64,000 bases of DNA from the IMG/VR virus record IMGVR_UViG_3300002140_000103. One strand, given 5' to 3'. Of the stretch, positions 1 to 40,763 are shown in pieces. The translations under genes were made by a program, and so were the position numbers. Under the pieces are notes generated by a model. It saw only the letters and a program-made list of their open reading frames with translations. It did no database searches and was not told where the DNA came from. Each line of letters starts with the position of its first letter. Within the stretch, counting starts at the first letter, position 1. The DNA comes from an uncultured virus (IMG/VR IMGVR_UViG_3300002140_000103) (taxonomy: Duplodnaviria > Heunggongvirae > Uroviricota > Caudoviricetes).

Positions 1-2
1 CC

Positions 3-449
3 GCCTACCCAATGATCAACCATTGGGTATCTTTTTTGTAGTGCTTGTTTTTGAGCAACTTTTTGTCCACCAACGACAATACGTATCTGAGGATGTTTAT
101 TTTTTGCGTAATCAAACCACTGTGTTATTTCATCTTGCGGAAACGGAAAATATACATTCCACATATTGCTTTTGCGTGTTCTACTATCAGCGCTCCAATG
201 TGTTTCCCAGTCTTCCGGCATTAGTGTACTGAAGTGTGTACTACTAAACCCTAGAAATACAGTGTCGTTACTTACATACAAGTCAATAGCACGTTTAAAT
301 CGTTCATAGTTAAAATGACTAAAGAAGTCTATAACTTTAACACAATAACCGTTTTCACGTAATCTACTAGCCACAGTATATGCGCCGGCATCTCGACCCC
401 AGCCGATACTTCCATTACATTCTGTGAATAGTACTACATCATAATTCAT
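3..449 (-). CDS. Probable cobalamin-binding radical SAM protein, N-terminal part only (runs off the left edge)
   Basis: Not in the ORF track. Hand translation from ATG at 449 (ATGA overlap with the GNAT stop) gives MNYDVVLFTECNGSIGWGRDAGAYTVASRLRENGYCVKVIDFF...IRIVVGG, open to the edge. It parallels the N-terminus of 4520..5935 (GQYQLASWLRTFGYTVKVIDF...KWILGG). The CxxxCxxC motif is not visible in the window. Confidence 0.7.
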   Translation of the reverse strand, partial: MNYDVVLFTECNGSIGWGRDAGAYTVASRLRENGYCVKVIDFFSHFNYERFKRAIDLYVSNDTVFLGFSSTHFSTLMPEDWETHWSADSRTRKSNMWNVYFPFPQDEITQWFDYAKNKHPQIRIVVGGQKVAQKQALQKRYPMVDHWVG

Positions 450-889
450 AATTCTTTAATCACGTAACAATTTAATTCACTAGTTTCAGTTTTAAAGAAG
501 TCACTTGTTTGTTCAAACCCGGCATTTAAATAAGTTTTTAACGCTGTTTTTCTCGGTAGACTCCAACAATACTTTTTATTTTCTTTAACCGCTAACTGTA
601 TTGTATATTCCAATAATAGTTTGCCTATATTATTATTTCTATATTCAGGCATTACATACAACCCTCTACTTCTATAATGTATTCTACTAGTAGCATGTCC
701 ACTATTAACACCTACTACAGTGTTATCAATTATATATCCAAAAAACGTAGGGACGTAATTTTTTAATATGCCTTTATATGCAATATCATTATAACGCATA
801 GTACTCATAGGCATTATAATAGCACGATTGGGCCAGAGATATTTCTGCCAAAATTCATAAACTGTTTCATAGTCAAGTTCCTTAATCAT
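446..889 (-). CDS. GNAT-family N-acetyltransferase
   Basis: 147 aa; acetyl-CoA motif A (GLYVMPEYRNNNIGKLL) and C-terminal YLNAGF. Confidence 0.85.
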   Translation of the reverse strand: MIKELDYETVYEFWQKYLWPNRAIIMPMSTMRYNDIAYKGILKNYVPTFFGYIIDNTVVGVNSGHATSRIHYRSRGLYVMPEYRNNNIGKLLLEYTIQLAVKENKKYCWSLPRKTALKTYLNAGFEQTSDFFKTETSELNCYVIKEL

Positions 890-1883
890 ATTGATCTCCT
901 ACAATAACGTGTTTTGGAACTAGATATTGATAAATTTTATTTGCACCTTGATTAAATGTATTTCCGCTTGCACCTACTCCACTATGAGGCATTTCGATCG
1001 GAGTAGTCATAGGCTTATTTACAAATATATTTCCCCAACGAGCGTGTTGTGATACAAATCTTTGTGTTTTTAACTCCGTTGTATATAGGTGTAACCCTAA
1101 TCTATTTGGAAGTTGATTTATTTGCTTTATTAACTCTTGTAGATTATCGTATTGACTCATAGTTGCTTCTGGTCTGAAGTGATCAATGTTTGTGAGTTGT
1201 TGTTCTTTGACACAATTTAGATTTTCAATTAACTGCGCAAACAAATTACGTTTACAAAAAATGTGTTTAGGACTGGTACAATCGGCGCCGCCATTATATT
1301 TAATACTCCAATCTAGGCTGTTAGCAATAAAACTAATATTGCCGTCATTAACAATAGCAACACTTGCTCCACCTATATCAGCAATTACATCATTATGATG
1401 TTGTTTAAAAAAATCTGCCGTTGTTTTACTACCAGTAATATCAATAAAGTCATATATGCTAAAGTCAACAGTGTCAACTACATTAACTTGTACTTTATTT
1501 TTCCAATTAGAAAATATAAATGGTACACTTCCTTTGTTTTTAGGATTTAACTTTACATCAATAGTACAACCAGCAGCAATAGCCGGAGCAATCTTCCACA
1601 TAGCAATAACTAATGGATAATTCCACGGTACAACTCCTAGACAATGACCTTTTGGCTCATAACGCATGCTACTAGTACAAGTGTTATAATACTCATCTTG
1701 CGGAGGTGCTGTTATTGTTCGGGAAACACCAGCATAAAAATTGCAGATATCAATTGCAGTATTTACATCAAAATCTGCGTTGTTTTTAAAGTCAGTTGTT
1801 TCGAGCTTAACTATTTTTTTAAAGTTATCTTGTATAAACTTAGATAAAGAGAAAAGAGTATTTTGACGATCTTGTGGTTTCAT
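882..1883 (-). CDS. Compact aldehyde dehydrogenase (aminobutyraldehyde dehydrogenase-like)
   Basis: VPWNYPL, WKIAPAIAAG, ITGS, YNGGADCT (catalytic Cys) and EMPHSG motifs; only 333 aa. Confidence 0.8.
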   Translation of the reverse strand: MKPQDRQNTLFSLSKFIQDNFKKIVKLETTDFKNNADFDVNTAIDICNFYAGVSRTITAPPQDEYYNTCTSSMRYEPKGHCLGVVPWNYPLVIAMWKIAPAIAAGCTIDVKLNPKNKGSVPFIFSNWKNKVQVNVVDTVDFSIYDFIDITGSKTTADFFKQHHNDVIADIGGASVAIVNDGNISFIANSLDWSIKYNGGADCTSPKHIFCKRNLFAQLIENLNCVKEQQLTNIDHFRPEATMSQYDNLQELIKQINQLPNRLGLHLYTTELKTQRFVSQHARWGNIFVNKPMTTPIEMPHSGVGASGNTFNQGANKIYQYLVPKHVIVGDQYD

Positions 1884-1888
1884 AACTT

Positions 1889-1917
1889 ACTATACTATAC
1901 ATTTTTACAGTTGTCAA
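1889..1917 (-). promoter_or_regulatory. Sigma70-type promoter, probably leaderless
   Basis: TTGACA-N17-TATAGT, then 5 nt, then the ATG at 1883; no Shine-Dalgarno sequence. Confidence 0.8.
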
Positions 1918-1938: not shown

Positions 1939-2511
1939 TCAAAGGATTACTGCAACTAAATGAATTCTATCTTCTTTACTAGCATTAAATGCAGTATGAA
2001 GTAATACTGTATTTGTCCAATACCAGTTATTTAATTCTAAATATTTTATTTCATTTTCAATAACCATAAAACACCCGTCTTGAGTCTTAACAGGGTAATG
2101 AATTCTGGTTGAATCATCTCTATGCCAGGACAAGCAAGTTTTTGATTTAGATTTCATCAAACGCACTCGACCTAATTTGTACTTATTACACAATTGCGTA
2201 TATACATCTTCAAAAAGAGTATTTTTAAACTGAGAACACAATATTGAAAAGTCTTGTTCGGTATATTTTACTTTATATTCTGGTATTTCAAAAGACTCAT
2301 TTCCGTATTCATCTGTTATTGTTTTTGAATTATTCCAATCTAACACTAAACTGCCGGTGCCTAGTAAATAGTTGTCAGGATTTTGTTCTGTAGTATTAAT
2401 ACAAATCTGATTTTCTTTAGTCCATTCTATTGTTTTATTTTCGATAAGTTTGTTGAGTTCGGAATATAAATCGTATATTGGTAAATTATCTAAATTTTTA
2501 AAATTGTTCAT
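1939..2511 (-). CDS. 2OG-Fe(II) oxygenase (Asp/Asn beta-hydroxylase-like)
   Basis: GRVRLM...CLSWHRD...RIHYP...HTAFN...RIHLV: HxD...H triad and distal Arg. Confidence 0.75.
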   Translation of the reverse strand: MNNFKNLDNLPIYDLYSELNKLIENKTIEWTKENQICINTTEQNPDNYLLGTGSLVLDWNNSKTITDEYGNESFEIPEYKVKYTEQDFSILCSQFKNTLFEDVYTQLCNKYKLGRVRLMKSKSKTCLSWHRDDSTRIHYPVKTQDGCFMVIENEIKYLELNNWYWTNTVLLHTAFNASKEDRIHLVAVIL

Positions 2512-2576: not shown

Positions 2577-3350
2577 TTACTTTAAATAATGAGTAATGCA
2601 AAGTCTGTTTACATATCCTCGTTTAAATTTATTATACTTCTTGTTATGATCTAATCCAAAAATTACTGTATCACTAGGAATTATGCCTAATTCATTGCAT
2701 ATTTCTATTTGCTTTTGTCTATATTTTTTAAATGTATCATCTGGACCTAATGTATTAATCAGATCATAGTGTATTTTAGCACTGGATAATAGTTGATAAT
2801 CCCATTCTTTGTACACTGAAACAGGGTATGTGTCTACAGTATAAATTTTACCTACACGATAATATCCAGTACCAAATGTTTTACTTAAACTAAATGCAAC
2901 AGTATGAATATTTTTATAAAGAGTAAAATCAAAATTGACGTTGGAGCAAATACCAAAGAATGCACAATCAACAAATATAGGTTTATTAAATGTATCAGCA
3001 TACGCTAATTTTTCGTGAGCACTCATTCCATCAGCACTAAACGGATGGCTTACTATAATACAATCTGCTGCTTTAAGATTTTTTGTTAGTCGTTTTTTAG
3101 GTAATACTACTTCGTGATACGGATATTCGCCTTCAAAAATGCCTATTTTATTATAGATTGCATAAGTTTGATTAAAAGCATCTGTTATTCCCGAAACTAT
3201 GTAGCTATCTTTTGGAAGTCCTTGTACTTTAAAATTAGACTTAAATATCCAATTATCAAAGTCTTGAGAAAAATTATGAAAAGATTCCATATCATCTTTA
3301 AATTTAGCAATAGGTAATGCAGCTTTTGTTATTAGATCTAAATTATACAT
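2577..3350 (-). CDS. PLP-dependent fold-type-I (aminotransferase-like) enzyme
   Basis: FVDCAF (PLP Asp) and FSLSKTFG...RVG (Schiff-base Lys); paralog of 11510..12439. Confidence 0.75.
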   Translation of the reverse strand: MYNLDLITKAALPIAKFKDDMESFHNFSQDFDNWIFKSNFKVQGLPKDSYIVSGITDAFNQTYAIYNKIGIFEGEYPYHEVVLPKKRLTKNLKAADCIIVSHPFSADGMSAHEKLAYADTFNKPIFVDCAFFGICSNVNFDFTLYKNIHTVAFSLSKTFGTGYYRVGKIYTVDTYPVSVYKEWDYQLLSSAKIHYDLINTLGPDDTFKKYRQKQIEICNELGIIPSDTVIFGLDHNKKYNKFKRGYVNRLCITHYLK

Positions 3351-4368
3351 AGCTATCTGGGCCTCCCTTACGTTTTAAATCTAGTGTTACACAATGTAAC
3401 CCGCTATCCCAAAAATATTTATGTCTAAAATTAAACGGAATTCCTTCAATGCCATTTGCTTTAAGCTGCGCATATACGTCTGCATCATATCCATTGGTAA
3501 TAACTGTGTGTTCATCAAGACTGATAACATTAATATCAAATACAGTTTCGTCTACGTAACCAATCCAATGCTGTAACCATTCTTGTACTGTACTTTTATA
3601 AAAATGTTGGCTTTTTATTTTGTGAAAATACTCAGGTAATTCTTTTGTTTTAGCTTGAATGACGGTCCACTTTTTCATTGCCTTAGGAATATGTTTTTTG
3701 TTATAGCACATGACTACACCAGGTTTAAGTAATGCTAGTTTACCATCAGCATGTCCTACTGCTGGAATTTCAACCCAATGAACATCTCTATCAATGTTAC
3801 GTTTAACCCAATCTAATCCAGCCTTTGTTCCTTTGCCCCAAGTTGTATCATCGTTGTATGGTCTTGTATGTAATAAAGTATCGCCTGCTTTAAGAACACA
3901 TGCAGCATGGAACATTATTTGACCTTCCATTTTTTTATATTTTCGATAGTAGGAGTTTAGCAAGGGCTTAGGCATATTGATATAGTTTCTTCCCTCTGCA
4001 TATTTTTTAAGCATAATATCTAAGAAGTAATCGTGTTCTGTATAACGATTACAGTCGCCGCCGGCAGTGCCTAATATAGTATTGCCATAAACAATGTGAA
4101 AGTCACGTGGGCAAATAGCAGGATAAGGATAAGCTGACTGCCAGGTTCTGTGCTGTTCTGCTATTAGAGGAAAATCTCGAGGCCTATGCACTTTAACATC
4201 TGCACTTTTAAACAAATTAGATAATTTTTGGAAATCTTCTTCTGTTTCTTCTAATATTTTACCTAATCCATCAACAAATTCTTGATCGTCAAATTGTTTT
4301 AAAACATCTATATTATATGCTTTACCTACAATAACTTCTTCTAGTTTATCCCATTCTGTATAAATCAT
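3343..4368 (-). CDS. Amidinotransferase (glycine/inosamine-phosphate amidinotransferase family)
   Basis: TEWDKLEEVIVG, CPRD, GHADG, and C-terminal DSGLHCVTLD with the catalytic Cys. Confidence 0.88.
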   Translation of the reverse strand: MIYTEWDKLEEVIVGKAYNIDVLKQFDDQEFVDGLGKILEETEEDFQKLSNLFKSADVKVHRPRDFPLIAEQHRTWQSAYPYPAICPRDFHIVYGNTILGTAGGDCNRYTEHDYFLDIMLKKYAEGRNYINMPKPLLNSYYRKYKKMEGQIMFHAACVLKAGDTLLHTRPYNDDTTWGKGTKAGLDWVKRNIDRDVHWVEIPAVGHADGKLALLKPGVVMCYNKKHIPKAMKKWTVIQAKTKELPEYFHKIKSQHFYKSTVQEWLQHWIGYVDETVFDINVISLDEHTVITNGYDADVYAQLKANGIEGIPFNFRHKYFWDSGLHCVTLDLKRKGGPDSYV

Positions 4369-4519: not shown

Positions 4520-5935
4520 TTATTCTAAATTTTTTGCTACATAGTTTTCTATAAACTGTTTTGTTTTATCTAACAATAATTCATCCTTAAAATCTTTTTC
4601 GCGGAGTTCTAATAAATCTTTCATATTACAACGTAGTGTTGTACTAAATTCTCCCAGTTGAAATCCTGCAATTTTTCTATATTTGTAGGATCTATTATTA
4701 TTATCTTTTGCTATCTTCATTAATTTAGTATGTACTAAGTCACCATTTGTCCAGTTAACAAAGTTATCATCAGTAAACTTGTATCCGTATTTTTCATAGT
4801 TTTTTTCAAATTCACTTACCCATTGGTGTTTATTAATAACATTAATAGGATTTATATAAAGAGCCCAGTAATACCAACAACTCATATCGTTGTCTATCAT
4901 CCATTGTAAATCTATTTCTTCTTGTTCACCGGACCATCCCGGAAGTCCAACAATCATACCCATCCACCAGTTAGTTTTTCCTTTCCATCGGGTTTTTAAC
5001 TCTAATAGAAATTCTTTAGCATACTGGCCGTTCCAACCTTTTCCTATTGCTTTTGAACCTTGTGCTTGAAAACTTTCAATACCAAAGAATGCGCTGCGTA
5101 AACCCGATTCGGGTAGTAAATCTATCATTTCTGGGTATGTTGCTAACAGATCAATTCTTATATAAGCAATGTACTCTAATTCAAAAGGTAACGATTTGCT
5201 AATACGATAAATCATTTGTACTTTATCCAAACTTTCATTAAGTGTATCATCACTAAAGTAATACTTTTTAATACCAAATCTTTCATAGTTTTGTATTAGT
5301 TCAGTTCTTATATCATTTTCACTTCGAATATTAGTTCCTTTTTTACGACCAGTTAACGGAAATTGACAAAACTTACATTTAAAAATACACCCTCTACTTA
5401 TTTCAATACTTAGTGTTTCATAGGGTTGAATATAGTCGTCATTGCTATATACTTTTACAAAGTTTTGTATATCAAATTTTGGTCTTATTTCAATTTGCCT
5501 TGACAAACTATCAAGCATTGCTAATGTTTCGTCTTCGGCAAACTGATGTATACGTATCCAATCATTATCCATTATAGGAGACGTTGAATTTGATCCACCA
5601 AGAATCCATTTTATATTAGGATGAGTATTTCTAAAAACATCTCTTAAATGCTGTACCCACTTCGGATATACAATGCCGCCGACTGTTACACTATTTAACT
5701 CAATTCCGGTTACTTCCCAAAAGGTAGTACTTACTCCAAAAGCAAGAGTGGTGTTATCGATATGTTTTTTAGCAATCTCTTCTATTATATGAGGTTGTAG
5801 TTTAAAACAAAAGTCTATTACTTTTACAGTGTACCCAAACGTTCTTAGCCAAGAAGCAAGTTGATATTGGCCACCACTACGCACAGCGTAATGCTCCGGT
5901 TCTTCCATTCCGGCAAAAATAATAAAATTTGTCAT
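4520..5935 (-). CDS. Cobalamin-binding (class B-like) radical SAM protein
   Basis: N-terminal B12-type domain; EISRGCIFKCKFC, FSDDT, FFGIES and MIVGLPG motifs. Confidence 0.85.
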   Translation of the reverse strand: MTNFIIFAGMEEPEHYAVRSGGQYQLASWLRTFGYTVKVIDFCFKLQPHIIEEIAKKHIDNTTLAFGVSTTFWEVTGIELNSVTVGGIVYPKWVQHLRDVFRNTHPNIKWILGGSNSTSPIMDNDWIRIHQFAEDETLAMLDSLSRQIEIRPKFDIQNFVKVYSNDDYIQPYETLSIEISRGCIFKCKFCQFPLTGRKKGTNIRSENDIRTELIQNYERFGIKKYYFSDDTLNESLDKVQMIYRISKSLPFELEYIAYIRIDLLATYPEMIDLLPESGLRSAFFGIESFQAQGSKAIGKGWNGQYAKEFLLELKTRWKGKTNWWMGMIVGLPGWSGEQEEIDLQWMIDNDMSCWYYWALYINPINVINKHQWVSEFEKNYEKYGYKFTDDNFVNWTNGDLVHTKLMKIAKDNNNRSYKYRKIAGFQLGEFSTTLRCNMKDLLELREKDFKDELLLDKTKQFIENYVAKNLE

Positions 5936-7047
5936 TAAACTTTCCTTTTAGGTATTTTACTGTCTGCACTACTTACACAGCTATCAGTTATACAAGGCAT
6001 TGGTTTGTTAAATAGCGTAAAGCCTGTTTCGATATTACCAAGTGGAACATCGTGACAACTATAACTACGCTTTACGCTGCCGTCGGGTTCGCGTATGATA
6101 ATACCTTGATACCCAGCATTACAATGCCATCCTTTAAACTTGTTAAAGTTAAAAGCGTTAAATCGTTCTGCTTGATCCATATAGTATTTATTACCGTTAG
6201 AATCCGCCATTTCAATTTGCATATGCCACGGCACACTAGAATCGTTCTTTTCGTTAATTTCTGTAGGTACTTGAAAATTAGGTGTAGGACGCTCCGCCCA
6301 CTTACGCTTGCTTTCTGTGTACGCACGTTGCGGCATACCGTTGTGTAAACGCTTTAGGTTGTCGTCGGTGTAGCCATCTACCACTCGACTAGCTGTAGGG
6401 TCGCTTTGAGGCTTCAGCGTGACGTTTATACCTTGCTCGTGAAAGAACAATGCATTGTCCCAATCCTTCTCAAACCACTCTGGTACCATAACCATGTTGA
6501 TAGTTACTTGTACATCATGCTCTTGACAGAAAATTAACTTGTCTGCAAAATCCTGCATCTTCTCTGGTGTGCTAAGATGTTCAGTGTGCAAACTTGCTGT
6601 AATACTTGCACGGTGAAATGGCGTTACTGCTTCTACGTACTGCTCAAACCACGCCATATTGCGTGAGCAGTTTGATGTCATATGAACACTAGTGTAATTA
6701 GTATTACCAACATCATTAGCAAGATGTTTGAGAATGTCCAAGTAACCAGGGTGAAAAGTAGGCTCGCCTCCACTAAGACTAAAATGAAAGCTATTAAAAC
6801 CGTTGTCACGTGCCTGCCTTTTTATTTCGTCAATTGTTGTAAGACATAGCTCTGTTGGTCTATGGTCTTTTCGATCAGATCTAGCGTACGGCCAACAGTA
6901 ACTACATTTATAGTTACAGAAACGGCCCAATAGCCAACTAACAGTAAAAAGATCGCGGTAAAGAAGAGTCCTTTGCCCGACACTAACAATGTCGTCAAAC
7001 GGGATTTTTGTAAAATCATAATTACTCCATTTTAAATCTTCAGTCAT
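5935..7047 (-). CDS. Radical SAM protein with C-terminal twitch/SPASM-like domain
   Basis: CNYKCSYC, SGGEPT; C-terminal CNAG...GSVKRSYSC...PLGNI...CITDSC. Confidence 0.9.
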   Translation of the reverse strand: MTEDLKWSNYDFTKIPFDDIVSVGQRTLLYRDLFTVSWLLGRFCNYKCSYCWPYARSDRKDHRPTELCLTTIDEIKRQARDNGFNSFHFSLSGGEPTFHPGYLDILKHLANDVGNTNYTSVHMTSNCSRNMAWFEQYVEAVTPFHRASITASLHTEHLSTPEKMQDFADKLIFCQEHDVQVTINMVMVPEWFEKDWDNALFFHEQGINVTLKPQSDPTASRVVDGYTDDNLKRLHNGMPQRAYTESKRKWAERPTPNFQVPTEINEKNDSSVPWHMQIEMADSNGNKYYMDQAERFNAFNFNKFKGWHCNAGYQGIIIREPDGSVKRSYSCHDVPLGNIETGFTLFNKPMPCITDSCVSSADSKIPKRKV

Positions 7048-7052: not shown

Positions 7053-7081
7053 ATTATATTACATTCGAGCTGTTATGTCAA
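7053..7081 (-). promoter_or_regulatory. Perfect-consensus sigma70 promoter, probably leaderless
   Basis: TTGACA-N17-TATAAT, then 5 nt, then the ATG at 7047. Confidence 0.88.
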
Positions 7082-23755: not shown

Positions 23756-23849
23756 TTCTCATAAACCTTGTGTACTTTTCTAGTTCTAGACTTCCTTTAT
23801 ATAATACATTAGTTAGAGGAGTTTGTCTACTAAAATCTTCAAGATTCAT
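23742..23849 (-). pseudogene. Relic 3' end of methyltransferase 24541..25386, still open as a 35-aa mini-ORF
   Basis: MNLEDFSRQTPLTNVLYKGSLELEKYTRFMRIGFK*, versus ...DLNNFSRQTPLNNVLYEGSLELEKYTRFMRIGFK*. Its ATG overlaps the sulfotransferase stop (ATGA). Confidence 0.9.
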
Positions 23850-26713: not shown

Positions 26714-26715
26714 AA

Positions 26716-30167: not shown

Positions 30168-30185
30168 GATGCATCCTTTAAATAG

Positions 30186-30213
30186 ATTATAACAGCTAGA
30201 TATTATTTGTCAA
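30186..30213 (-). promoter_or_regulatory. Sigma70-type promoter with extended -10
   Basis: TTGACA-N16-TATAAT with TGn directly before the -10; AAGGA SD before the ATG at 30167. Confidence 0.75.
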
Positions 30214-33460: not shown

Positions 33461-34462
33461 TTAAATTAATCTTTCCTTCCAGGTTCTTGGAGTTTTAGAG
33501 TTTACTATTTCTAAAGGAAACGTATAATCAAACGGTTTGGTGCCGCGCTTTTTGATATAATCGATTGTACGTTCAACTGCTGTTTCTAAATCTGTTGTTG
33601 TTTTATAGTTTAATACTTGTCTTGCTTTGTCTGCACTACATGTTGCATGTTTAACTTCTTGTGGTCTGTCATCTACATGTATCGGTTGTAAGTTACAACC
33701 GGTTTTGTTAGCTATTAAATTTGCCAAATCTTTAACTGTAATTGTTCCTTCATCTGGTCCGATGTTTATTATTTGTCCTACAATATCGTTGTCTAATATA
33801 AGTTTTTCAAGACACTGTATACAATCGTCTACATAACTAAAGCATCGTGTTTGTAAACCATCGCCATATATAATAGCAGGCTTACCTTGTAAATTTCTGT
33901 TTATCATAATGCTCATTACGTTTCTAAACGGATCGTCATAGCGTTGTCTTGGCCCTACAATGTTGTGAGGTACTGCTATATTCCATTCCATTCCGTGCGT
34001 ATCACTTAGCATACGCAATGTATCTTCGCCTGCTACTTTTGCAATGCCATATGGATCTACAGGCATAGGCTTCATATCTTCGGTAAACGGAGTTTGTTGA
34101 TTTCCATAACGTGCCATACTAGAGCAATATACAAAGCGTCTTACTTTATTTTCTAATGCTGCACTAATTGTAGAGACTGTTGCTTGAAACACGTTTTTAG
34201 TAATAAAGTCGGGGCTTACTACACTTAGACCTTCGTGTGCTGTTGCAGCAGTATGTATTACAACATCGACATTTTTCATTATGTCTGCCATACGTTCTCT
34301 GTTGCAGCAATCTACTTTGTAAAGTGTTGCTTTATGATTTACGTTATCTTCATACCCACCAATTAAGGTATCATTACCTAATACGTCGTGTCCTAAATTA
34401 ATCATTCGATCGGCTAAATGGCTTCCTAGAAAGCCTGCTATACCTGTTATAAAAATTCGCAT
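33461..34462 (-). CDS. NAD-dependent NDP-sugar epimerase/dehydratase (extended SDR)
   Basis: [24 protein letters not shown] (YxxxK), HNIVGPRQ and [14 protein letters not shown]. Confidence 0.95.
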
Positions 34463-35151
34463 ATTCTCTCCGCAAAATAACTATGTGCTGTTTCTGAAGG
34501 ATGGAATCTAGGCATAATCCATCCGTTAAGTTCAGGAAACTTTTTATCTGTAAAATGCATTTCCATCATGGAAAGCTCTGCTGTTGAGCCTGCTTGTTTT
34601 ACTGTCCAATCAAAGAAGTTAGAACATCCGTCAATAGTTAAAAATCTATCCCATTCAACTGAATTAACAAAGTTACTATTAATAATTTTATAGAAATATT
34701 CTTTATTATATTCTCGTGTAAATGCAGGAAACATAATAAGGTTATGTCCATTAGCTTTACAAAAATTTTGAATATTAACAATGCTTACAATTGCATTTAA
34801 AACTTCTGTTTTTGCCGAAACAAAAAAAGACAAAGCCTTTTCAAGATTTACAAGTTCAACAGAACCAATGTTAACAGGTGAAGTATGCGGAAAGACATGC
34901 TCAAAGCCGTTGCCGTCGCGTCTAAATAAGTCAACTCTGTTCATACCAGTCGGCATAAAAATTACTGTAGAATTACTAGGAATGTCTGCCATTAGTACTC
35001 GCGTTACTGCACCTGCATTACCGGATGATTCTTCTCCCAAGTTAATACCGCCAAGGCAATCTATAAAGGACTTGCCTTTTTCAATTTCTGCACCTTGCAC
35101 AAAAGAACACCCAGTGCCGATAATTATTTTATTAAGTTTACGTTTTTTCAT
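34447..35151 (-). CDS. SGNH/GDSL-like protein
   Basis: [17 protein letters not shown] and FHPSETAH; paralog of 31123..32148. Confidence 0.68.
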
Positions 35152-35160
35152 ATTGCGTTT

Positions 35161-35847
35161 TTAATGTATATCTAAAAATTCTTTTAACTGCGGATACATA
35201 TAATTATTACAATATCTCATGTATGCTTCAAGTCTTGGGTGGTTGCCGTCTTTAAAAAACGGTAATTTATTTTTACGACACCAATCAACAATAGGGTTGT
35301 TAAAGATGTTAACATTATGTTTAGATAAATGTTCTTCAAATATTATTTTTTGATCGGTTGTAATTACAGTATCCCAGCCATACACTACAAATGTATTAGG
35401 TGTCATCTTTTTAGCAGAGATTATGTAAAATAAAAGATCCTCAAGATGCTGTTCAACATCCATTAGATCTCCGCCGGTTTCTTTTTGAGAAAAATATGAA
35501 TGAGATAAGAAATCAATTCTTTCTTTTTTATCAAAAATATTTATAGACTTTATAACAGTTGAAGCAAGAGCATTTTTATTTTCATTTTTTTGCTGTTTAA
35601 TAAAAAAAGGAGTCATTGGTTTTCTTAAATAACTACGTTCTGACCCAGTTATTTGCCATATAACTATATCGTTAGTAGTAATAGGAGTATTAAACATTAG
35701 TTCTTGAAATCGACGTTGCTGTAAACCATTGGAACTTGAAGATTGGGCAAGATTTATTAATGGAATTTTCATAGATTCCGAAAGACACCTTGCCCATCCC
35801 ACGTGATGTGTAATACTGCAACCTAATGTTATTAATCTATCATACAT
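35161..35847 (-). CDS. SGNH/GDSL-like protein
   Basis: LGCSIT, NLAQSSSSN and DGNHP. Confidence 0.7.
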   Translation of the reverse strand: MYDRLITLGCSITHHVGWARCLSESMKIPLINLAQSSSSNGLQQRRFQELMFNTPITTNDIVIWQITGSERSYLRKPMTPFFIKQQKNENKNALASTVIKSINIFDKKERIDFLSHSYFSQKETGGDLMDVEQHLEDLLFYIISAKKMTPNTFVVYGWDTVITTDQKIIFEEHLSKHNVNIFNNPIVDWCRKNKLPFFKDGNHPRLEAYMRYCNNYMYPQLKEFLDIH

Positions 35848-37204
35848 AACTTTTGCATAAATTCCAAAATTCTGTCATTTCAGGAAATGTTTCTAATAAG
35901 TTTGTATTCCTTCTACGATCATATTCAGTAAACCAATTGTAAAAATCTTTTCTACCTTCGGTTATTTTATGGTCATCGTATTTTACAGTGGCAAAATAAT
36001 TTCTTACTCTGCGAAATCTTTCATATTCTAGGTCACTAAACTTAGTTGTATCGTTGTCATCTTTGTTATCTTTGATAAATTGTAAGATGTTATCAAAGTA
36101 AGGAAGGAATTCTTCCTTAGGAAGTATGTGCATATCGTACTGCAAGGGTTCTTTAAGATAAGGAGTGTCAAATCTAATTCTACGTCTCTTTGGATCGTGA
36201 TACTGTTTTCTCCATTCAAGAACTTTTTCTAAAAAGTCAGTAAAACTAGTGACACTTAAAATGTTAAATGTACACATTACTGTCAGGTCGGCGCCAGTAA
36301 TATCGAGGTAATTCTTCATATTACTTTCCCACAACTCTACGTTTAAACCAGTACGCAGGTATTCTGCACGTTTGCTGAATGTATCTATACTGGTATACAA
36401 TTTAAACTTGTTGATTGTATTCGTATCTAGAAGTTCTTTTACGTTGTTAGATAATTTTGTAACTAATCGCGGAGTTACTCCGAGGTTGCTGTTTAAGTTA
36501 AGTTCAAGATTAGGTCTTGGCTCTTCTCTGAGTCTATCAAACAAATTCCAAGTGCTTTTGTGCATAAGTGGCTCGCCGCCGGTAATGCGTAAAATGTTTA
36601 ATGTTTTACTTAGCTCGGGCCACCATTCCCACCATGCTTTAATATAAGGATTGTCATCTTCGGGAATTGGAGTAAACCAATCTACGTCAAGTGCGTGATT
36701 TTTTACAGTAGTATAAGGTCCAAACTTTTTAATTTCAGCATGAAAACTACTACTTGCCATTGGGTGACAATATCCACATTTGAAATTACATTCATTACTA
36801 AATGCAATTTCAACGTATTCAGGATTAACATTAAAATCCCAAGGGTTATCAAGAATTTCTTTTATACGTTCTGGCTTATAGATACTTTCATTACGAATCA
36901 TTCTATCTGATATATGATCAGTACCTAGCGATTCGACATTCCAACAGTACTTACACCCTGCAGGCTTTTCTCCAATTAACATTTTTGCACGTTCTTTTTT
37001 CTTAATAAGCGTATTATGCAATGCACTTGGATTGTTTTTTATTTCAGCTAAATCAATTGCATGTGGAGCAGGATGATAACAACTGTGCGTTTGCCCGGTA
37101 TGCAAATATATTGTAGTATGATGCCACTTTGCCAAACAGAATGTTGGGCTTATTTCGTCCATTTCAAATGTACGATTTTTTATGTTTTCTGTTTCAGATG
37201 TCAT
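35840..37204 (-). CDS. Radical SAM protein with N-terminal twitch-like domain
   Basis: FCLAKW...HSCYHP...CKYCW; CNFKCGYC; TGGEPL. Confidence 0.9.
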   Translation of the reverse strand: MTSETENIKNRTFEMDEISPTFCLAKWHHTTIYLHTGQTHSCYHPAPHAIDLAEIKNNPSALHNTLIKKKERAKMLIGEKPAGCKYCWNVESLGTDHISDRMIRNESIYKPERIKEILDNPWDFNVNPEYVEIAFSNECNFKCGYCHPMASSSFHAEIKKFGPYTTVKNHALDVDWFTPIPEDDNPYIKAWWEWWPELSKTLNILRITGGEPLMHKSTWNLFDRLREEPRPNLELNLNSNLGVTPRLVTKLSNNVKELLDTNTINKFKLYTSIDTFSKRAEYLRTGLNVELWESNMKNYLDITGADLTVMCTFNILSVTSFTDFLEKVLEWRKQYHDPKRRRIRFDTPYLKEPLQYDMHILPKEEFLPYFDNILQFIKDNKDDNDTTKFSDLEYERFRRVRNYFATVKYDDHKITEGRKDFYNWFTEYDRRRNTNLLETFPEMTEFWNLCKSYV

Positions 37205-38124
37205 GTTTCGATATCAATGAATTGCTGCTCAGAGTTTCTTGCTGGATTTTGATAAACTGTTTTAAAGAATTTACTGCCGCCGGCGTCTAACGGCATAACA
37301 CCTATTGGGAGATCGAGTTCGTGTTTAAGAGTTTCACCAATTGATTCTATTTCGTCAATAAGATTTTCCTCGGTTACTTCCATATTATTCCACATGTTGT
37401 TAAGATACTCAAAGTCACGAACGTTGATATAATCCCAATCTGTACACATAGTTTTATACAAACCTTCACGAGCTCCGTAGATAGCCCATAATCCATTTTC
37501 AACATCGGCACCAATCATAAGCCAAATATATAAACGATGCAAGTTTTTCCAATGATTCTTTTTAAATTCATCATAGGATACCTTTACTCCACGATCAAGT
37601 GCCATTTTAACACCTTCGCGAAAGCCGGCACGCCACGCTTGTTGTGCTGTAGCATTGTTTATAATTTCACTATAGCAACTGTTCATTTGAATATATTTAA
37701 TATCCCAACAAAAATCTACTTGTGCATGTGGATTGTTTGGATCGGCATTTTCATGCGTTTTCATATTTAACACATATTCTTTAGGCCAACATTTAAGTCC
37801 GCCATTACCATACATAAGTCCGTTGATAGTATTTTTAGCAGTCCAACTCATTACACACTTTTCAAGATCTTCGTTCTCGCCGAAGTCAAACTCTTTAGAC
37901 AAGAATTCGCTGTTGATAATGTTGTCACCATCAACAGTAATAAATCTATCAGTTTCGCTAAGCCTTGCACATGCTTTATGTGCAGCATCACTGCCTTCTA
38001 CGCCGTGTACACGCTTTGCCCACGGAATCTTTTTACAAAGATCTGCATAATTTTTTTCTGCATTAGGCTCGTCGTAGCTAAGATAAATGATATCATAGTC
38101 TAGCACTCTAAATTTATTACTCAT
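37201..38124 (-). CDS. GT-A glycosyltransferase-like protein
   Basis: YDIIYLSYDEPNA, RVHGVEG..AAH, ITVDGDN, YGNGG and AWRAGFREG; paralog of the C-domain of 25370..26713. Confidence 0.68.
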   Translation of the reverse strand: MSNKFRVLDYDIIYLSYDEPNAEKNYADLCKKIPWAKRVHGVEGSDAAHKACARLSETDRFITVDGDNIINSEFLSKEFDFGENEDLEKCVMSWTAKNTINGLMYGNGGLKCWPKEYVLNMKTHENADPNNPHAQVDFCWDIKYIQMNSCYSEIINNATAQQAWRAGFREGVKMALDRGVKVSYDEFKKNHWKNLHRLYIWLMIGADVENGLWAIYGAREGLYKTMCTDWDYINVRDFEYLNNMWNNMEVTEENLIDEIESIGETLKHELDLPIGVMPLDAGGSKFFKTVYQNPARNSEQQFIDIET

Positions 38125-38699
38125 TGTATAACCTCATGATAGTATGTCTCAAGTCTCTTTACAGTATATACACTCAATGCATCAGAGTCAAGTTCAATCT
38201 GACTCTTAAATGGAATTTTAACATCTTCTTTAATTAATTGCTCCATTGACAAATTTAAAAAATTTTCTAATCGATGTGGATCATTATATCTTGTAATACT
38301 AAAACTTAAATTCTTGTTAAAGGATATTTTGTTATTTTTGAAATTATCTTTTATACCTTGATCTAACATAAATTGCCATTCTTTGTCTTTAATGTTTTGT
38401 ATAATTAACAAGTCTGGTCTGCTTATAACACGCTTTGATATAAGATAAATTTGATTATTAATATCAAACATAATATCTTCTTCGTTAAATCTGTGTTTTA
38501 ATATATAAGACTTTTTAATTGTATCAAACAATACAACATAATGGCTAAACTGTTCTTTACCACTGATTAAATTTTTAACTTCGTCGTAAGTTGTTTCAAA
38601 ATAGCTGCCTTCTTCTAAGTTATTATTTGAAACAGATAACAAGTTACCGTCTTCATCAAAGTAAACATATTTTAAAATTGGAATATAAAAATCATTCAT
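38121..38699 (-). CDS. Hypothetical protein
   Basis: 192-aa coupled ORF with no recognised motif. Confidence 0.7.
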   Translation of the reverse strand: MNDFYIPILKYVYFDEDGNLLSVSNNNLEEGSYFETTYDEVKNLISGKEQFSHYVVLFDTIKKSYILKHRFNEEDIMFDINNQIYLISKRVISRPDLLIIQNIKDKEWQFMLDQGIKDNFKNNKISFNKNLSFSITRYNDPHRLENFLNLSMEQLIKEDVKIPFKSQIELDSDALSVYTVKRLETYYHEVIQ

Positions 38700-39537
38700 T
38701 GTTTAAGTAGCTTTCGTATATCTCAATTATATCATCTGTAACAAAGTCTTTTTCAGTATAATGAAAAATTCCATTTTGTTTGTAATTACCAATTTTGAGA
38801 TTTAGTTCCTTATCTAAATACACTCCAACTCGGTCTTGCCATCTTTCAGAAAAAGTAGATTTCCATTCTTGATTGCGAGTCTTCATATGTACAAAATTTG
38901 GGTAACTAATATTTTTGTTTGTAATCTTATCTTCGCAGTTGAGTATTTTAGTAACGATAGCTGCACTAACATCAACACTGGGAAATTTTTGAAAATGTTT
39001 GCCGCCGGCATATTGTCCGTAAAATAATTCCCAATTATTCATTACAAACTCTAGCCATTTGTAAAAAGTATGCGCTTCGTCTGAACGCTCAAAATAATTA
39101 AAGCCAGCATACACATTTGGTAGCATATGATTTCTAAATGCTTTCCTATAGTATACACTAGTTACCGGATTGCCTCTATAAGTTAGTACGTTTGTAGTAA
39201 AAAATACTTTGTGATTTTTTAAATAATTCCACCAAAGTTCAATGTTGTCTAGTACTAATACATCTGTATCTAATATAATAGTGCGATCGTACGGGCAGGC
39301 ATGATAAATTTTCCAACGATTTTCTATTTTCCAATTGCTGTCTTCTGCCGAATCCTCCCACGGAATTTCAACAATGTCGTCAAATACACTAACTGTTTTT
39401 TCATCTAACGTATTATTAGTTATAAGACATATTTTACTGTCTGGATTAGTTGCACGTATGCTTAATGCACACAAGTATGCTTGTTTTACATAATCGTGTG
39501 TACTGTTTTGTGCTAGCATTGTAAAATTAATTGTCAT
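38692..39537 (-). CDS. GT-A glycosyltransferase (GT8-like)
   Basis: ALSIR, ICLIT, FDDIV, PYDRTIILDTDVL (DxD) and VHMK. Confidence 0.75.
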   Translation of the reverse strand: MTINFTMLAQNSTHDYVKQAYLCALSIRATNPDSKICLITNNTLDEKTVSVFDDIVEIPWEDSAEDSNWKIENRWKIYHACPYDRTIILDTDVLVLDNIELWWNYLKNHKVFFTTNVLTYRGNPVTSVYYRKAFRNHMLPNVYAGFNYFERSDEAHTFYKWLEFVMNNWELFYGQYAGGKHFQKFPSVDVSAAIVTKILNCEDKITNKNISYPNFVHMKTRNQEWKSTFSERWQDRVGVYLDKELNLKIGNYKQNGIFHYTEKDFVTDDIIEIYESYLNNE

Positions 39538-40369
39538 TATCTATTACTCTAGTTAAGCTAAATTTATTCATTATATGAATGTTACTATCTTTTATCTTTG
39601 CTGGAAAGTATTGATTAGACTGTGTTTCTTTTTCAATTAAAAAAAGGAATTCGTTGCCATTTATTTTTAATACTAAATCTTTATCAGTTGTATAAAACAA
39701 TGTTCCTGGCATTTCTTTGGCAAAGTCACCCGACTTGTATCCGTTCATTGTGTGTATTGCTATACTAAATGCATGATCGTTTCTAAAAACACCGGTTGAG
39801 ATTTGATATAGATTTTTATAATGTGCCCAATTGTCTTGCACATGTTTTAATAAATCAAAAAATAACTTGTTGACTTCTGTTTTTCTAAAAAATACAACAG
39901 TTGCCCAATAAAAGTCTGGACCGGTTTCGCTAATGTAATTAAATTCTGATAAATCTCTCCACCCGCTTAACTCAAACCCATTTCTATACAATAAGAAGTC
40001 GTGCTGTTGTAAAAAGCATTGGCTAAACAAGTCATTTGATATTATAAAATCGGTATCCAATAGCAAAGTTTCGTCATAAGGAGTTAAATCAAATACACTA
40101 CTACGACTAGAATTTTTAAACTCTAAACGCTTTCTTGTAAAAGTACCGTCATTGTATTTTCTAAAAGTATAATTAGAGTCGTTTGAAACTTCAATTATTT
40201 GATCAAACACTGCATAGTCATAATTGTTTATTAGATAATTTTTATTATCTGTAATTAAACTAACTGGTATATTTAGAAATTCTTTAATTCGTTTAGCAGA
40301 ATATACAGCTTGCTTAATGTAGTCAATTTCACTATTATTTCTTGCTATTAATAAAGCGCCTTGACTCAT
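39527..40369 (-). CDS. GT-A glycosyltransferase (GT8-like)
   Basis: PVSLITD, FDQII, PYDETLLLDTDF, RNDHAFSIA and HIMNK; paralog of 38692..39537. Confidence 0.75.
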   Translation of the reverse strand: MSQGALLIARNNSEIDYIKQAVYSAKRIKEFLNIPVSLITDNKNYLINNYDYAVFDQIIEVSNDSNYTFRKYNDGTFTRKRLEFKNSSRSSVFDLTPYDETLLLDTDFIISNDLFSQCFLQQHDFLLYRNGFELSGWRDLSEFNYISETGPDFYWATVVFFRKTEVNKLFFDLLKHVQDNWAHYKNLYQISTGVFRNDHAFSIAIHTMNGYKSGDFAKEMPGTLFYTTDKDLVLKINGNEFLFLIEKETQSNQYFPAKIKDSNIHIMNKFSLTRVIDNDN

Positions 40370-40713
40370 AAGTCAACAATACCTTCAACTGTTCTATTAG
40401 ATTTTAACTTGTTATATTCTGTCATATAACGATTAGCAGCTTTCCAGTATACACTTACTAATGTATCTGCAAATTTTTGTAAATCGTCAATCTCGATAGG
40501 AATATCATTATCATCAATTAAAATTGTACTAGTTTGTTCAAGTGCTAACAAACTCTGACAGAAACTTACCAATTGTTGTGTAACTGTAAACTGCCCGCCA
40601 TTATAATAATGAACAACATCGTTTTGATATTGTTCTCTTAAAATACGTTTTTGATTATTTAAAGTAATCATATAATTACTAAAATCTAACGCAGATACTA
40701 ATCGTTCGTCCAT
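40366..40713 (-). CDS. Hypothetical protein (first gene of the enzyme operon)
   Basis: 115 aa with an AGGAG SD; YNGGQF...LIDDNDIPI resembles small tail-associated phage proteins (weak). Confidence 0.65.
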   Translation of the reverse strand: MDERLVSALDFSNYMITLNNQKRILREQYQNDVVHYYNGGQFTVTQQLVSFCQSLLALEQTSTILIDDNDIPIEIDDLQKFADTLVSVYWKAANRYMTEYNKLKSNRTVEGIVDL

Positions 40714-40734
40714 AGAATTCTCCTATCAAATACT

Positions 40735-40763
40735 ATTGTATATTTTTTTTATCTATTTGTCAA
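40735..40763 (-). promoter_or_regulatory. Sigma70-type promoter heading the enzyme cluster
   Basis: TTGACA-N17-TACAAT, followed by an AGGAG SD. Confidence 0.8.

Follow-up and report, generated by a model that had tools for sequence, protein, structure and literature searches.

The 64,000-nucleotide stretch of the uncultured virus IMGVR_UViG_3300002140_000103 analysed here (the window, which spans bases 58418-122417 of one virus contig of 146,632 bp) carries, directly behind its tail-fibre genes, a phage-encoded block of soluble enzymes. We consider it likely that the chemistry of this island is directed at sugars. The complete model, in which an entirely cytoplasmic, phage-encoded island builds and edits sugars for a fibre acceptor, stands in our judgement slightly short of an even chance, and the virion fibre protein as the target is an assignment that we hold tentatively. 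In this model, a core found in most related phages, consisting of the GT8-like glycosyltransferases o43 and o42, the GT-A domains of o40 and o29, the methyltransferase o28 and the accessory protein o26, would assemble a short glycan or repeat from nucleotide sugars. Three fixed radical S-adenosylmethionine (SAM) enzymes (o25, o19 and o08), together with a changing set of N-twitch paralogues, would act on the sugar or nucleotide-sugar precursor, with epimerisation, deoxygenation, oxidation and C-C or C-methyl bond formation as candidate reactions, and swappable cassettes would add amino (aminotransferases), guanidino (two amidinotransferases), acetyl, methyl and hydroxyl groups and possibly, though with less certainty, sulfate and O-acyl groups. 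The acceptor would most likely be o45/o46, encoded directly upstream, and the outcome would be a variable glycan coat on the host-recognition structure.

On the minus strand, from high to low coordinates, a baseplate wedge protein, a giant protein, three tail fibres, o46 and o45 are followed by 44 open reading frames (ORFs) running from 40713 down to 1. A first-pass annotation of the sequence had described about 43 tightly coupled, co-oriented genes over about 40 kb. The coupling is borne out: window positions 1-40763 hold 44 ORFs of 89-507 aa, 43 of them on the minus strand (o09, at 7119-8099, is the only plus-strand ORF among o01-o44), and 36 of the 43 junctions overlap or are separated by at most 9 nt, the remaining seven gaps measuring 35-151 nt. 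The block in this interval is real, but its extent had been understated, as it continues about 4.5 kb past the window start with four further minus-strand genes (in order, the rest of o01, a 588-aa radical SAM enzyme, a cupin and a class-III aminotransferase) down to genome position ~53907, the start of a convergent gene. The whole island comprises ~45 kb, 48 genes and 14 radical SAM enzymes, and the GC content is ~0.32 along the entire window. The baseplate wedge protein (phrog_10646, E=2e-89) has its nearest counterparts in the jumbo phages Phosso, Atu_ph07, RsoM2USA and PA5oct, and megablast of window positions 30000-50000 against cultured phages gave no match. No major capsid protein or terminase was found among the contig ORFs scanned, and the contig ends just past the portal gene; it is therefore incomplete. 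Taken as a whole, the cluster is real and mostly correctly annotated, while some family calls stay at the level of motifs.

Thirteen window ORFs (o01, o07, o08, o10, o11, o15, o17, o18, o19, o20, o25, o30 and o39) are radical SAM enzymes by Pfam and NCBIfam, which agrees with the earlier count, and the CX3CX2C motif is intact in all 14 radical SAM enzymes of the block. Nine of them (o10, o11, o15, o17, o18, o19, o20, o30 and o39) belong to the N_Twi_rSAM family (NF033640), with whole-protein scores of 215-417 bits (curated cut-off, 170 bits); at 41-44 bits, o08 and o25 fall short of it and are not members. In this architecture, a Cys-rich twitch domain lies N-terminal to the catalytic core: Pfam SPASM is matched at residues ~14-137 ahead of Radical_SAM in o10, o15, o19 and o20, and the twitch residues Cys52, Cys133 and Cys136 and the CX3CX2C residues Cys189, Cys193 and Cys196 are invariant across all nine paralogues, which are only 20-34% identical to o19. 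We found no assayed N_Twi_rSAM member in the literature searched, and the family name states no reaction. Among the other radical SAM enzymes, o07 is probably a methyltransferase, judging from its family matches. The contig also encodes a full three-domain SAM synthetase (MetK, L082:16974-18065; genome 34974-36068), which makes sense in a genome that carries 16 radical SAM genes. A 434-aa radical SAM enzyme with an N-twitch-like CX3CX2C context (L081:7429-8730; genome 7429-8733) lies among early-type genes, its neighbours being a DnaJ-like protein, a peptide deformylase and a Lon-type protease.

The most conserved of these enzymes, o19, has 166 relatives in IMG/VR, and all counts of related loci given here rest on the 80 kept, in which o19 is 63-89% identical (at least 72% in 79 of the 80); their contigs measure up to 457 kb. 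Typically, the genes follow the order fibres, o46, o44, o43, o42, o40, o29, o28, o26, o25, variable radical SAM enzymes, o19, variable radical SAM enzymes and o08. Among the anchors, o25 occurs in 79/80 loci, with Cys255, 274, 275, 339 and 343 invariant, o29 in 69/80 and o08 in 64/80 (median identity 77%), and most other island genes are rare or very divergent. The 51 full loci of ~21 kb carry 1-8 N-twitch ORFs each (median 5). The island recurs throughout an aquatic lineage of jumbo phages, in which cassettes are swapped around the fixed anchors o40/o29, o28, o26, o25, o19 and o08. A cultured soil phage carries a minimal version: in the Ralstonia jumbo phage RsoM2USA (MG752970.1, ORFs ~348-355), a collinear island of eight genes lies downstream of the giant protein and consists of a fibre, then homologues of o44, o43, o42 and o40, one N_Twi_rSAM enzyme, an o29-type GT-A protein and an o28-type methyltransferase. 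The fibre has a C-terminal o45/46-type domain and an N-terminal part matching o47/o49, the island proteins are 29-46% identical to those of the window (o40 is 46% identical to RsoM2USA_350), and all of these genes are annotated as hypothetical. In contrast to the 14 radical SAM enzymes of the present island, RsoM2USA has one, and it lacks o26, o25, o19, o08 and the amine, guanidino and oxygenase cassettes. The accessible part of the RsoM2USA paper contains no mention of glycan analysis (PMC8504454).

The first-pass annotation had counted about six glycosyltransferase (GT)-like genes and had placed them nearest the fibres. No Pfam GT family matched, even at E<=5, any of the 26 ORFs that lacked another assignment, or the other block ORFs at E<=0.01. 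Structure models proved more informative for two families. The o40 model combines a Rossmann-like core with an acidic metal-binding motif, as in GT-A enzymes; its residues 4-157 align with GT-A transferases at a VIA Z of 9-10.8 and a root-mean-square deviation of 3.0-3.6 A over 136-142 residues, the best matches being B4GALNT1, a Leptospira GT (6p61), STIV A197 and ThuS/SunS, and the model scores Z 8.6 against PBCV-1 A64R and Z 8.9 against mimivirus R699. The o35 model has two Rossmann-like domains like solved GT-B enzymes, and every Foldseek match listed is a GT-B enzyme (E from 1.1e-4, probability 0.96-1.0, TM 0.3-0.39), among them OtsA (1.1e-4), T4 beta-glucosyltransferase (1.5e-4), FucT, GtfA and SdgB. 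Sequence-profile searches against the PDB gave no match for o35, whose 323 homologues include none with a Pfam domain, and nothing useful for o40/o29. For the paralogues o42 and o43, a 27-sequence profile matched glycogenins (GT8) in 19 of 19 PDB matches (best E=1.9e-4, profile positions 3-102 only), and Asp90 and Asp92 of the DxD motif are invariant inside these N-terminal ~100 residues; Pfam Glyco_transf_8 did not match either protein even at E<=5. The possibility, raised at the outset, that the GT-like ORFs might lack GT folds did not materialise, as both modelled families have them and a third is weakly glycogenin-like. The count of six thus holds by fold for o40 and o35, by a weak glycogenin match for o42 and o43 and by partial paralogy for o29 and o31, without recognition by Pfam, and o43, o42 and o40 do lie nearest the fibres, but o35, o31 and o29 are mid-block. 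The predicted NDP-sugar epimerase stands, o36 being an NDP-sugar short-chain dehydrogenase/reductase by Pfam.

Two further core partners also occur fused to transferase domains. The putative methyltransferase o28 occurs in 71/80 loci; its nearest Atlas cluster carrying a Pfam family has Methyltransf_31 on 21% of members (score 0.95), and a sequence-profile search against the PDB gave nothing useful. In 8/80 loci (L011, L015, L016, L018, L021, L022, L041 and L071), fusion ORFs of 854-1215 aa place an o28-type methyltransferase behind an o29-type GT-A domain, and in seven of these eight an o40-type GT-A domain comes first. The small protein o26 is present in 56/80 loci and 62-90% identical across its homologue alignment, and its family of 44 representative proteins is nearly all 26-158 aa long. 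One 307-aa protein (P0250) consists of an o29-type GT-A domain (42% identity, E=1e-52) followed by o26 (45%, E=1e-24). Judged by this fusion, o26 is an accessory module of the o29/o40 transferase and not a precursor peptide, and we dropped the idea that it is a carrier protein or the precursor of a ribosomally synthesised and post-translationally modified peptide (RiPP). A complex prediction for o25 and o26 (score 0.01 against a mark of 0.32) was uninformative either way.

These observations bear on the proposal that the radical SAM enzymes, oxygenases and methyltransferases edit not a sugar but amino-acid side chains of a fibre protein, the giant protein or o26, as in proteusin-type RiPPs. 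SPASM/twitch radical SAM enzymes are often peptide maturases, weak NCBIfam matches to PapB-, YhhB- and SkfB-type maturases occur among those of the block, the Asp/Asn hydroxylase-type oxygenase o04 is present, and the tiny, very conserved o26 precedes the radical SAM gene o25. However, the maturase matches are all far below their cut-offs, whereas N_Twi_rSAM is matched far above its own; o26 is conserved over its whole 53-residue core, with no variable core peptide, and is found fused to a GT-A domain; and Pfam names no PqqD-type element, leader peptidase or peptide exporter in the block or in ten bacterial loci with N_Twi_rSAM genes. The block does not show the leader with variable core, the recognition element and the protease or exporter of a RiPP cluster, and the bacterial loci hold none of the Pfam hallmarks of peptide natural-product clusters. 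We regard peptide modification as very improbable.

The bacterial loci, in turn, favour sugars. N_Twi_rSAM genes were present in 3 of 401 sampled genomes of one bacterial phylum, one of the three being the centre genome, which was picked for having them; each of four bacterial genomes searched whole carries 2-6 copies, often in tandem, as compared with nine in the phage block. Ten distinct loci were examined (L088, L089, L090, L091, which is the same place as L107, L092, L093, L105, L106, L108 and L109), with crude ORF calls in the high-GC loci L088-L090. One search route, seeded with a single protein, reaches closer relatives only; of the nine loci that it gave, L094 and L095 were too short for inspection. 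In five of the ten, N_Twi_rSAM genes lie with deoxysugar, GT or O-antigen ATP-binding cassette (ABC) transporter genes, and this supports the sugar-directed reading. In L089, FdtA and an NDP-hexose 2,3-dehydratase are located between two N_Twi_rSAM copies; L088 has a GT4 and two EryCIII-like GTs; L105 has four N_Twi_rSAM copies in tandem, accompanied by RmlC, RmlD, Wzm, Wzt, a TylF-type methyltransferase and a WbsX GT; L108 has a short-chain dehydrogenase/reductase and a GT2; and L106 has a GT2-like gene. L092 carries a carbamoyltransferase. A single 854-aa open frame in L105 (8582-11143; genome G105, contig 19) joins a Wzt ATPase and a Wzt C-terminal domain to one of the four N_Twi_rSAM copies; the other three copies, the TylF-type methyltransferase and the WbsX GT come after it. 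The island's fibre-to-transferase part is collinear with a chromosomal locus of Bdellovibrionales: in a metagenome-assembled genome of this order (L106:6061-18142), directly beside pheS/pheT, trmD and rimM, homologues of o46, o44, o43, o42 and o40 occur in the same order, with homologues of o08 (61% identity) and o29 (47%) and three N_Twi_rSAM genes. A more specific proposal, which we consider doubtful, is that the never-assayed N_Twi_rSAM enzymes combinatorially edit a glycan on the phage's own o45/o46 fibre domain, that cassette swaps around three anchors rapidly diversify a chemically unusual coat with guanidino, amino, methyl and sulfate groups and that predatory bacteria share the module.

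The tailoring enzymes would extend this chemistry. A six-sequence profile of o06/o16 matched StrB1 (1bwd) at E=5e-36, followed by HsvA, SxtG (positions 3-341) and AGAT, and the His-Cys pair is invariant; both are StrB1-type amidinotransferases, as initially proposed. The GNAT (o02), aldehyde dehydrogenase (o03), nitroreductase (o09) and FkbM (o21) calls likewise agree with curated models, the nearest NCBIfam models of o03 being aminobutyraldehyde and betaine-aldehyde dehydrogenases, all far below their cut-offs. The FkbM enzyme o21 matches Methyltransf_21 and TIGR01444, and o28 is a class-I methyltransferase lead. Other initial calls hold in part. The two pyridoxal phosphate (PLP) enzymes, o05 and o14, are weakly supported: their family profile matches fold-type I aminotransferases at E=4.8e-4, with Ser198..Lys201 invariant. 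Among the five 2-oxoglutarate (2OG) oxygenases, o04 and o32 are recognised by Pfam, but o13, o22 and o23 remain at the motif level, since hhalign of the o13 family against o32 gave a probability of 1.2% and BLASTP of o22 against o23 gave E=0.088; the o13 profile returned nothing useful from the PDB. The four SGNH-like proteins (o33, o34, o37 and o38) carry motif blocks, with Gly24, Cys25, Ser26, Gly110, Asn116 and His320 invariant in the o34 family, but they have no match to Pfam SGNH models at E<=5, and a 19-sequence o34/o37 profile has no meaningful PDB match. The putative sulfotransferase o27 has a Stf0 match at E=0.12 and no match in a profile search against the PDB; its homologues occur in 2/80 loci, and related loci have the order o28-o26-o25, with o27 absent. 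The copy of the o28 3' end downstream of o27 overlaps the o26 start, as the true o28 does in related phages, and the 96-nt direct repeat around o27 looks like the scar of a cassette insertion.

This enzyme set might instead make a soluble secondary metabolite, that is, an aminoglycoside- or pseudo-oligosaccharide-like molecule with guanidino, amino, methyl and sulfate groups that acts on the host or on competitors during infection. Amidinotransferases of the StrB1, SxtG and HsvA types typically belong to small-molecule pathways, the accompanying block enzymes include aminotransferases, an aldehyde dehydrogenase, a GNAT protein, B12-type radical SAM enzymes, an FkbM methyltransferase and oxygenases, and the bacterial relatives adjoin EryCIII-like natural-product GTs and a carbamoyltransferase. 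Pfam and NCBIfam scans, however, named no exporter, self-resistance gene or scaffold enzyme (cyclitol synthase, polyketide synthase or non-ribosomal peptide synthetase). The amidinotransferases occur in 7/80 loci and, counted with the aminotransferases, the range is 7-18/80, whereas the fixed core consists of transferases and radical SAM enzymes, and a metabolite would leave the conserved link to a fibre-type protein unexplained. A secondary metabolite thus appears quite improbable to us.

That link underlies the choice of acceptor. Homologues of o44, the first gene of the enzyme block, occur in 19/80 loci, in RsoM2USA and in L106, always preceding an o43 homologue, and the order o46-like, o44, o43, o42, o40 recurs in marine relatives (for example, L034), in RsoM2USA and in the Bdellovibrionales locus. 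Owing to this fixed partnership in marine phages, a soil phage and a bacterium, the o45/o46-type protein is the best acceptor candidate. A profile search of o45/o46 against the PDB gave nothing useful, and tblastn of o46 against cultured phages gave no match. The giant protein o51, which is homologous to RsoM2USA ORF361, belongs to the same neighbourhood; ORF361 is among the abundant virion protein bands of that phage (PMC8504454). None of o01-o44 has a membrane segment (19-residue hydrophobic window, Kyte-Doolittle >=1.6), which is why we describe the block enzymes as soluble, and searches of the block with Pfam, PHROGs and NCBIfam turned up no flippase, polymerase, exporter or lipid-carrier primer.

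Promoter-like sites complicate the assignment to the fibre. The motif TTGACA-N16-18-TAnnnT occurs 26 times in the genome, compared with 10.4 in shuffles (maximum 17), and ten matches (nine sites) are on the plus strand of the early-type region. The totals of a generic promoter/terminator scan were no higher than in shuffles (104 vs 100.9 and 10 vs 7.6), and from the generic promoter scan only the top-scoring sites falling in gaps were used. The T4 late-promoter motif TATAAATA was found once in the window (inside o38) against 15.5 expected (standard deviation 4.2), and no late promoter could be defined; TATAAATA is strongly depleted across the whole window. On its own strand, the giant-protein gene contains four TTGACA-N16/17-TAnnnT sites.

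Several points weigh against a glycan placed on the fibre. Four sigma-70-type sites lie in island gaps, including the one before o44, and none lies before the fibre genes, which suggests that the block is transcribed separately from the fibres; the block may be expressed earlier than they are, a timing also in keeping with remodelling of the host or synthesis of precursors. Even soluble GTs can work on lipid-linked intermediates of the host and rely on its exporters. Pfam recognises none of the six GT-like genes, the fold matches of the GT-like models have low TM-scores (0.2-0.39), and the GT-A core of o40 also resembles nucleotidyltransferases (IspD and MobA, Z ~9), so that the fold is shared and the transferase activity of o40 is a prediction. 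Among the Foldseek matches of o35, T4 DNA beta-glucosyltransferase ranks second. Finally, we infer the glycan, its acceptor and each reaction from gene content, folds, synteny, fusions and bacterial contexts, all of which were observed. Of the initial interpretation, a glycan or post-translational coat on the virion or the host surface, the sugar chemistry is favoured by the GT folds, the bacterial sugar contexts and the StrB1 call, but the glycan and its destination are conjectural.

Remodelling of the host envelope accommodates some of these points: the enzymes would alter the host nucleotide-sugar pool or lipid-linked O-antigen or capsule intermediates, host flippases or exporters would transport the products, and the purpose might be, for example, to exclude other phages or to stop re-adsorption of progeny. 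The sigma-70-type promoters point to early transcription that is independent of the fibres, N_Twi_rSAM genes occur in O-antigen-type loci of bacteria, one of them in an open frame with Wzt, and the authors of the pelagimyophage study favour modification of the host O-chain for similar, GT-rich host-recognition clusters (PMC7029224). A second sugar-nucleotide module elsewhere in the contig (L082:5080-13461; genome ~23080-31460, plus strand), comprising a cytidylyltransferase-like protein, a phosphomannomutase, a UDP-Glc/GDP-Man dehydrogenase, a weak GT1 and an epimerase, points in the same direction. Yet the 44 window ORFs include no membrane protein, primer GT, flippase, polymerase or exporter, a lytic phage would depend wholly on host export within one infection cycle, and host remodelling would not explain why a fibre-type gene is a constant neighbour in phages and a bacterium. 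Host remodelling is, in our view, unlikely, and the fibre-type protein remains our preferred, tentative acceptor.

Hypermodification of DNA, in which an elaborate glycan or amine on the bases of the phage genome would evade restriction or CRISPR, was the alternative named in the first-pass annotation. The best structural matches of o35 include T4 beta-glucosyltransferase, early-type promoters are present, and phage GTs that hypermodify DNA with glycans are known (10.1101/2023.12.21.572611), which counts in its favour. Against it, the contig encodes a canonical ThyA thymidylate synthase (330 bits) beside a dCMP deaminase; the scanned ORFs of the incomplete 146-kb contig include no base hydroxymethylase or TET/JBP, no DNA-base kinase, no aGPT-Pplase and no DNA methylase, a provisional negative; and the island lies in the tail module, not in the replication module. 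Within this incomplete contig, the genes do not form a DNA-hypermodification cluster. Moreover, a separate set outside the island, consisting of GTP cyclohydrolase I (FolE), a QueE-like radical SAM enzyme and a QueC-like protein (L082:15175-16900 and L083:16507-17406), is likely a 7-deazaguanine (DNA or tRNA base) module, judging from its gene content, and already accounts for that route. DNA modification is thereby made less likely; we keep it as a highly improbable alternative because the contig is incomplete and T4 beta-glucosyltransferase is a good structural match of o35. Other cargo of the contig includes a sodium:solute symporter, a SET-domain protein, a 680-aa Mtd_N-domain protein and a 957-aa subtilase (L083:1233-2696, 17402-17935 and 11560-16483).

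The phage is common, in that at least 97% of the sampled 31-letter words of window positions 36000-44000 are present in DNA runs from five studies (2015-2025); two of the runs are unlabelled, and the others are labelled marine or aquatic. Four metatranscriptome libraries from two studies hold 47-72% of the sampled words of the same interval, and their contigs cover 23-30 of 30 bins of positions 26001-46000 at >=95% identity, most pieces at >=99%; the contigs extend over island and fibres alike. RNA libraries can hold DNA, so these contigs indicate presence only, and not transcription, strand, starts or operon structure.

Table 1. Features of the enzyme block and of the neighbouring tail genes (window coordinates; aa, amino acids; S+T, serine plus threonine; pLDDT, predicted local distance difference test)
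Feature	Coordinates	Strand	Assignment and evidence
o01	3..449	-	N-terminal part of 512-aa B12-binding radical SAM enzyme; Pfam B12-binding and Radical_SAM on full ORF (L084:3331-4866)
o02	446..889	-	GNAT acetyltransferase; Acetyltransf_7 E=6.6e-9
o03	882..1883	-	Aldehyde dehydrogenase, short (333 aa); Aldedh E=1.4e-38
Promoter-like site, upstream of o03	1889..1917	-	Sigma-70 type; TTGACA-17-TATAGT, 11/12 matches, 55-nt gap
o04	1939..2511	-	Asp/Asn beta-hydroxylase-type 2OG oxygenase; Asp_Arg_Hydrox E=8.2e-8
o05	2577..3350	-	PLP fold-type I-like; paralogue of o14 (BLASTP E=2.8e-18)
o06	3343..4368	-	Amidinotransferase; 42% identical to paralogue o16
o07	4520..5935	-	B12-type radical SAM enzyme, PhpK/HpnJ-like; Radical_SAM E=6e-14; PhpK-family model E=3.5e-17, under cut-off
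o08	5935..7047	-	Anchor radical SAM enzyme without N-terminal twitch domain; Radical_SAM E=7e-13
Promoter-like site, upstream of o08	7053..7081	-	Sigma-70 type; TTGACA-17-TATAAT, 12/12 matches, 71-nt gap
o09	7119..8099	+	Nitroreductase family; Nitroreductase E=9.2e-6
o10	8096..9274	-	N_Twi_rSAM; NF033640 397 bits
o11	9237..10310	-	N_Twi_rSAM; NF033640 251 bits
o12	10300..10746	-	Function unassigned; phrog_10325 E=1.8e-7; no Pfam match
o13	10743..11513	-	Candidate 2OG/cupin oxygenase by motif; His101, Asp103, His230 invariant in 12 homologues
o14	11510..12466	-	PLP fold-type I-like; Aminotran_1_2 E=0.04
o15	12432..13757	-	N_Twi_rSAM; NF033640 235 bits
o16	13750..14823	-	Amidinotransferase; His340-Cys341 invariant in 6 sequences
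o17	14805..15890	-	N_Twi_rSAM; NF033640 215 bits
o18	15890..17098	-	N_Twi_rSAM; NF033640 254 bits
o19	17095..18618	-	N_Twi_rSAM, most conserved anchor; NF033640 417 bits
o20	18572..19891	-	N_Twi_rSAM; NF033640 219 bits
o21	19938..20669	-	FkbM-family methyltransferase; Methyltransf_21 E=1.4e-18; TIGR01444 91 bits, above cut-off
o22 (20669-21217), o23 (21190-21783)	20669..21783	-	Candidate oxygenases by HxD motif only; no Pfam, PHROG or NCBIfam match
o24	21725..22429	-	No family match (Pfam, PHROG, NCBIfam)
o25	22426..23493	-	Anchor radical SAM enzyme, C-terminal Cys cluster; Radical_SAM E=1.4e-5
o26	23486..23755	-	Very conserved small protein, 53-residue core
Duplicated o28 3' end	23742..23837	-	85/96 nt match 24541-24636; translates to last 31 codons of o28
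o27	23846..24544	-	Candidate sulfotransferase, weak; Stf0 E=0.12 over 36 residues; variable cassette
o28	24541..25386	-	Class-I methyltransferase-like anchor
o29	25370..26713	-	Anchor; C-terminal half is a GT-A domain paralogous to o40 (BLASTP E=3e-31)
o30	26716..28236	-	N_Twi_rSAM; NF033640 301 bits; 35% identical to paralogue o39
o31	28237..29511	-	C-terminal 93-residue stretch 46% identical to GT-B protein o35; only that stretch shared
o32	29460..30167	-	2OG-Fe(II) oxygenase; 2OG-FeII_Oxy_3 E=1e-12
Promoter-like site, upstream of o32	30186..30213	-	Sigma-70 type; TTGACA-16-TATAAT
o33 (30203-31126), o34 (31123-32148)	30203..32148	-	SGNH-like by motif only, Gly-Cys-Ser block
o35	32114..33460	-	GT-B-fold glycosyltransferase-like; model pLDDT 87
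o36	33461..34462	-	NDP-sugar epimerase/dehydratase (short-chain dehydrogenase/reductase); Epimerase E=8.9e-48, GDP_Man_Dehyd E=3.3e-39
o37 (34447-35151), o38 (35161-35847)	34447..35847	-	SGNH-like by motif only; o37 paralogue of o34, E=1e-12
o39	35840..37204	-	N_Twi_rSAM; NF033640 316 bits; 35% identical to single N-twitch gene of Ralstonia phage RsoM2USA
o40	37201..38124	-	GT-A-fold transferase (predicted); model pLDDT 88; Asp65 and Asp67 invariant
o41	38121..38699	-	No family match (Pfam, PHROG, NCBIfam)
o42 (38692-39537), o43 (39527-40369)	38692..40369	-	Paralogous GT8-like GT-A candidates
o44	40366..40713	-	Conserved 115-aa protein, first gene of enzyme block
Promoter-like site, upstream of o44	40735..40763	-	Sigma-70 type; TTGACA-17-TACAAT, 55-nt gap
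o45 (40769-41791), o46 (41846-42763)	40769..42763	-	Ser/Thr-rich fibre-type proteins; S+T 25-26%, no Cys
o47, o48, o49	42781..48086	-	Three paralogous tail fibres; Collar domain E=1.8e-18 in one; tail-fibre PHROGs
o51	48724..62643	-	Giant 4639-aa virion-type protein; CBM_5_12 and FG-GAP_2

If the product is a glycan edited by radical SAM enzymes, it would open a new area of carbohydrate enzymology, with nine paralogues per genome from a family for which we found no reported reaction. Abundant marine phages would then be shown to add chemical decoration to their own host-recognition structures, or to their hosts, to an extent that has so far been described for giant eukaryotic viruses alone, and a glycan coat on the fibre would provide a second, non-protein layer of host-range or anti-defence variation. 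The family is large, as the relatives of o19 alone indicate, and the proposal is testable through the minimal eight-gene version in a cultured phage and the collinear version in a bacterium.

Aminoglycoside and aminocyclitol clusters use BtrN-type twitch and GenK-type B12 radical SAM enzymes. Like them, the island has StrB1 homologues (o06/o16) and combines aminotransferases, GTs, radical SAM enzymes and methyltransferases; unlike them, it has no cyclitol synthase that we could find, its twitch domain is N-terminal instead of C-terminal, and its amidinotransferases are variable. Glycosylation of virion proteins by virus-encoded enzymes occurs in chloroviruses (PBCV-1 A64R), mimivirus (R699) and mycobacteriophages, and in these systems, as here, the soluble GTs and sugar-tailoring enzymes come from the virus itself. 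To our knowledge, the chlorovirus, mimivirus and mycobacteriophage systems contain no radical SAM arrays or amidinotransferases, and in the present island, in contrast to those systems, the acceptor is a candidate. For mycobacteriophages, glycans on the capsid and tail tube have been described (as cited in PMC12619734).

The closest parallel in layout is the host recognition cluster of pelagimyophages and cyanomyophages, which follows a giant VrlC protein and the tail fibres, has a mean length of 44.6 kb and carries glycosyltransferases of the GT8 type alongside "cassettes related to radical SAM proteins" (Zaragoza-Solas et al. 2020, PMC7029224). Both are large marine blocks behind a giant protein and fibres, with GT8 and radical SAM cassettes and a gradual, cassette-wise divergence; the gene order of the window, the variable N-twitch counts and the cassette scar agree with the layout of such a cluster, and the peptide deformylase and Asp/Asn hydroxylase called core in PMC7029224 are present here. 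They differ in that the nearest counterparts of the baseplate wedge protein of the present phage are those of jumbo phages, and in that related contigs are as long as 457 kb. The accessible part of that study is an outline of gene categories that does not specify a radical SAM family, anchors, fusions or a bacterial counterpart, and its supplement may list homologues. A marine T4-like environmental viral genome with 12 radical SAM genes has also been reported (Nishimura et al. 2017, PMC5332604); it is likewise a marine myophage with a dozen radical SAM enzymes, and in the accessible part of the paper it is treated only as a consumer of Fe-S clusters, with no pathway proposed, although the supplement may again list homologues. 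The island described here therefore falls within known classes, namely virus-encoded glycan systems and phage host-recognition islands, and its type has been sketched in the literature; what is new is not a first sighting, but the anatomy of the island and the handles for testing it.

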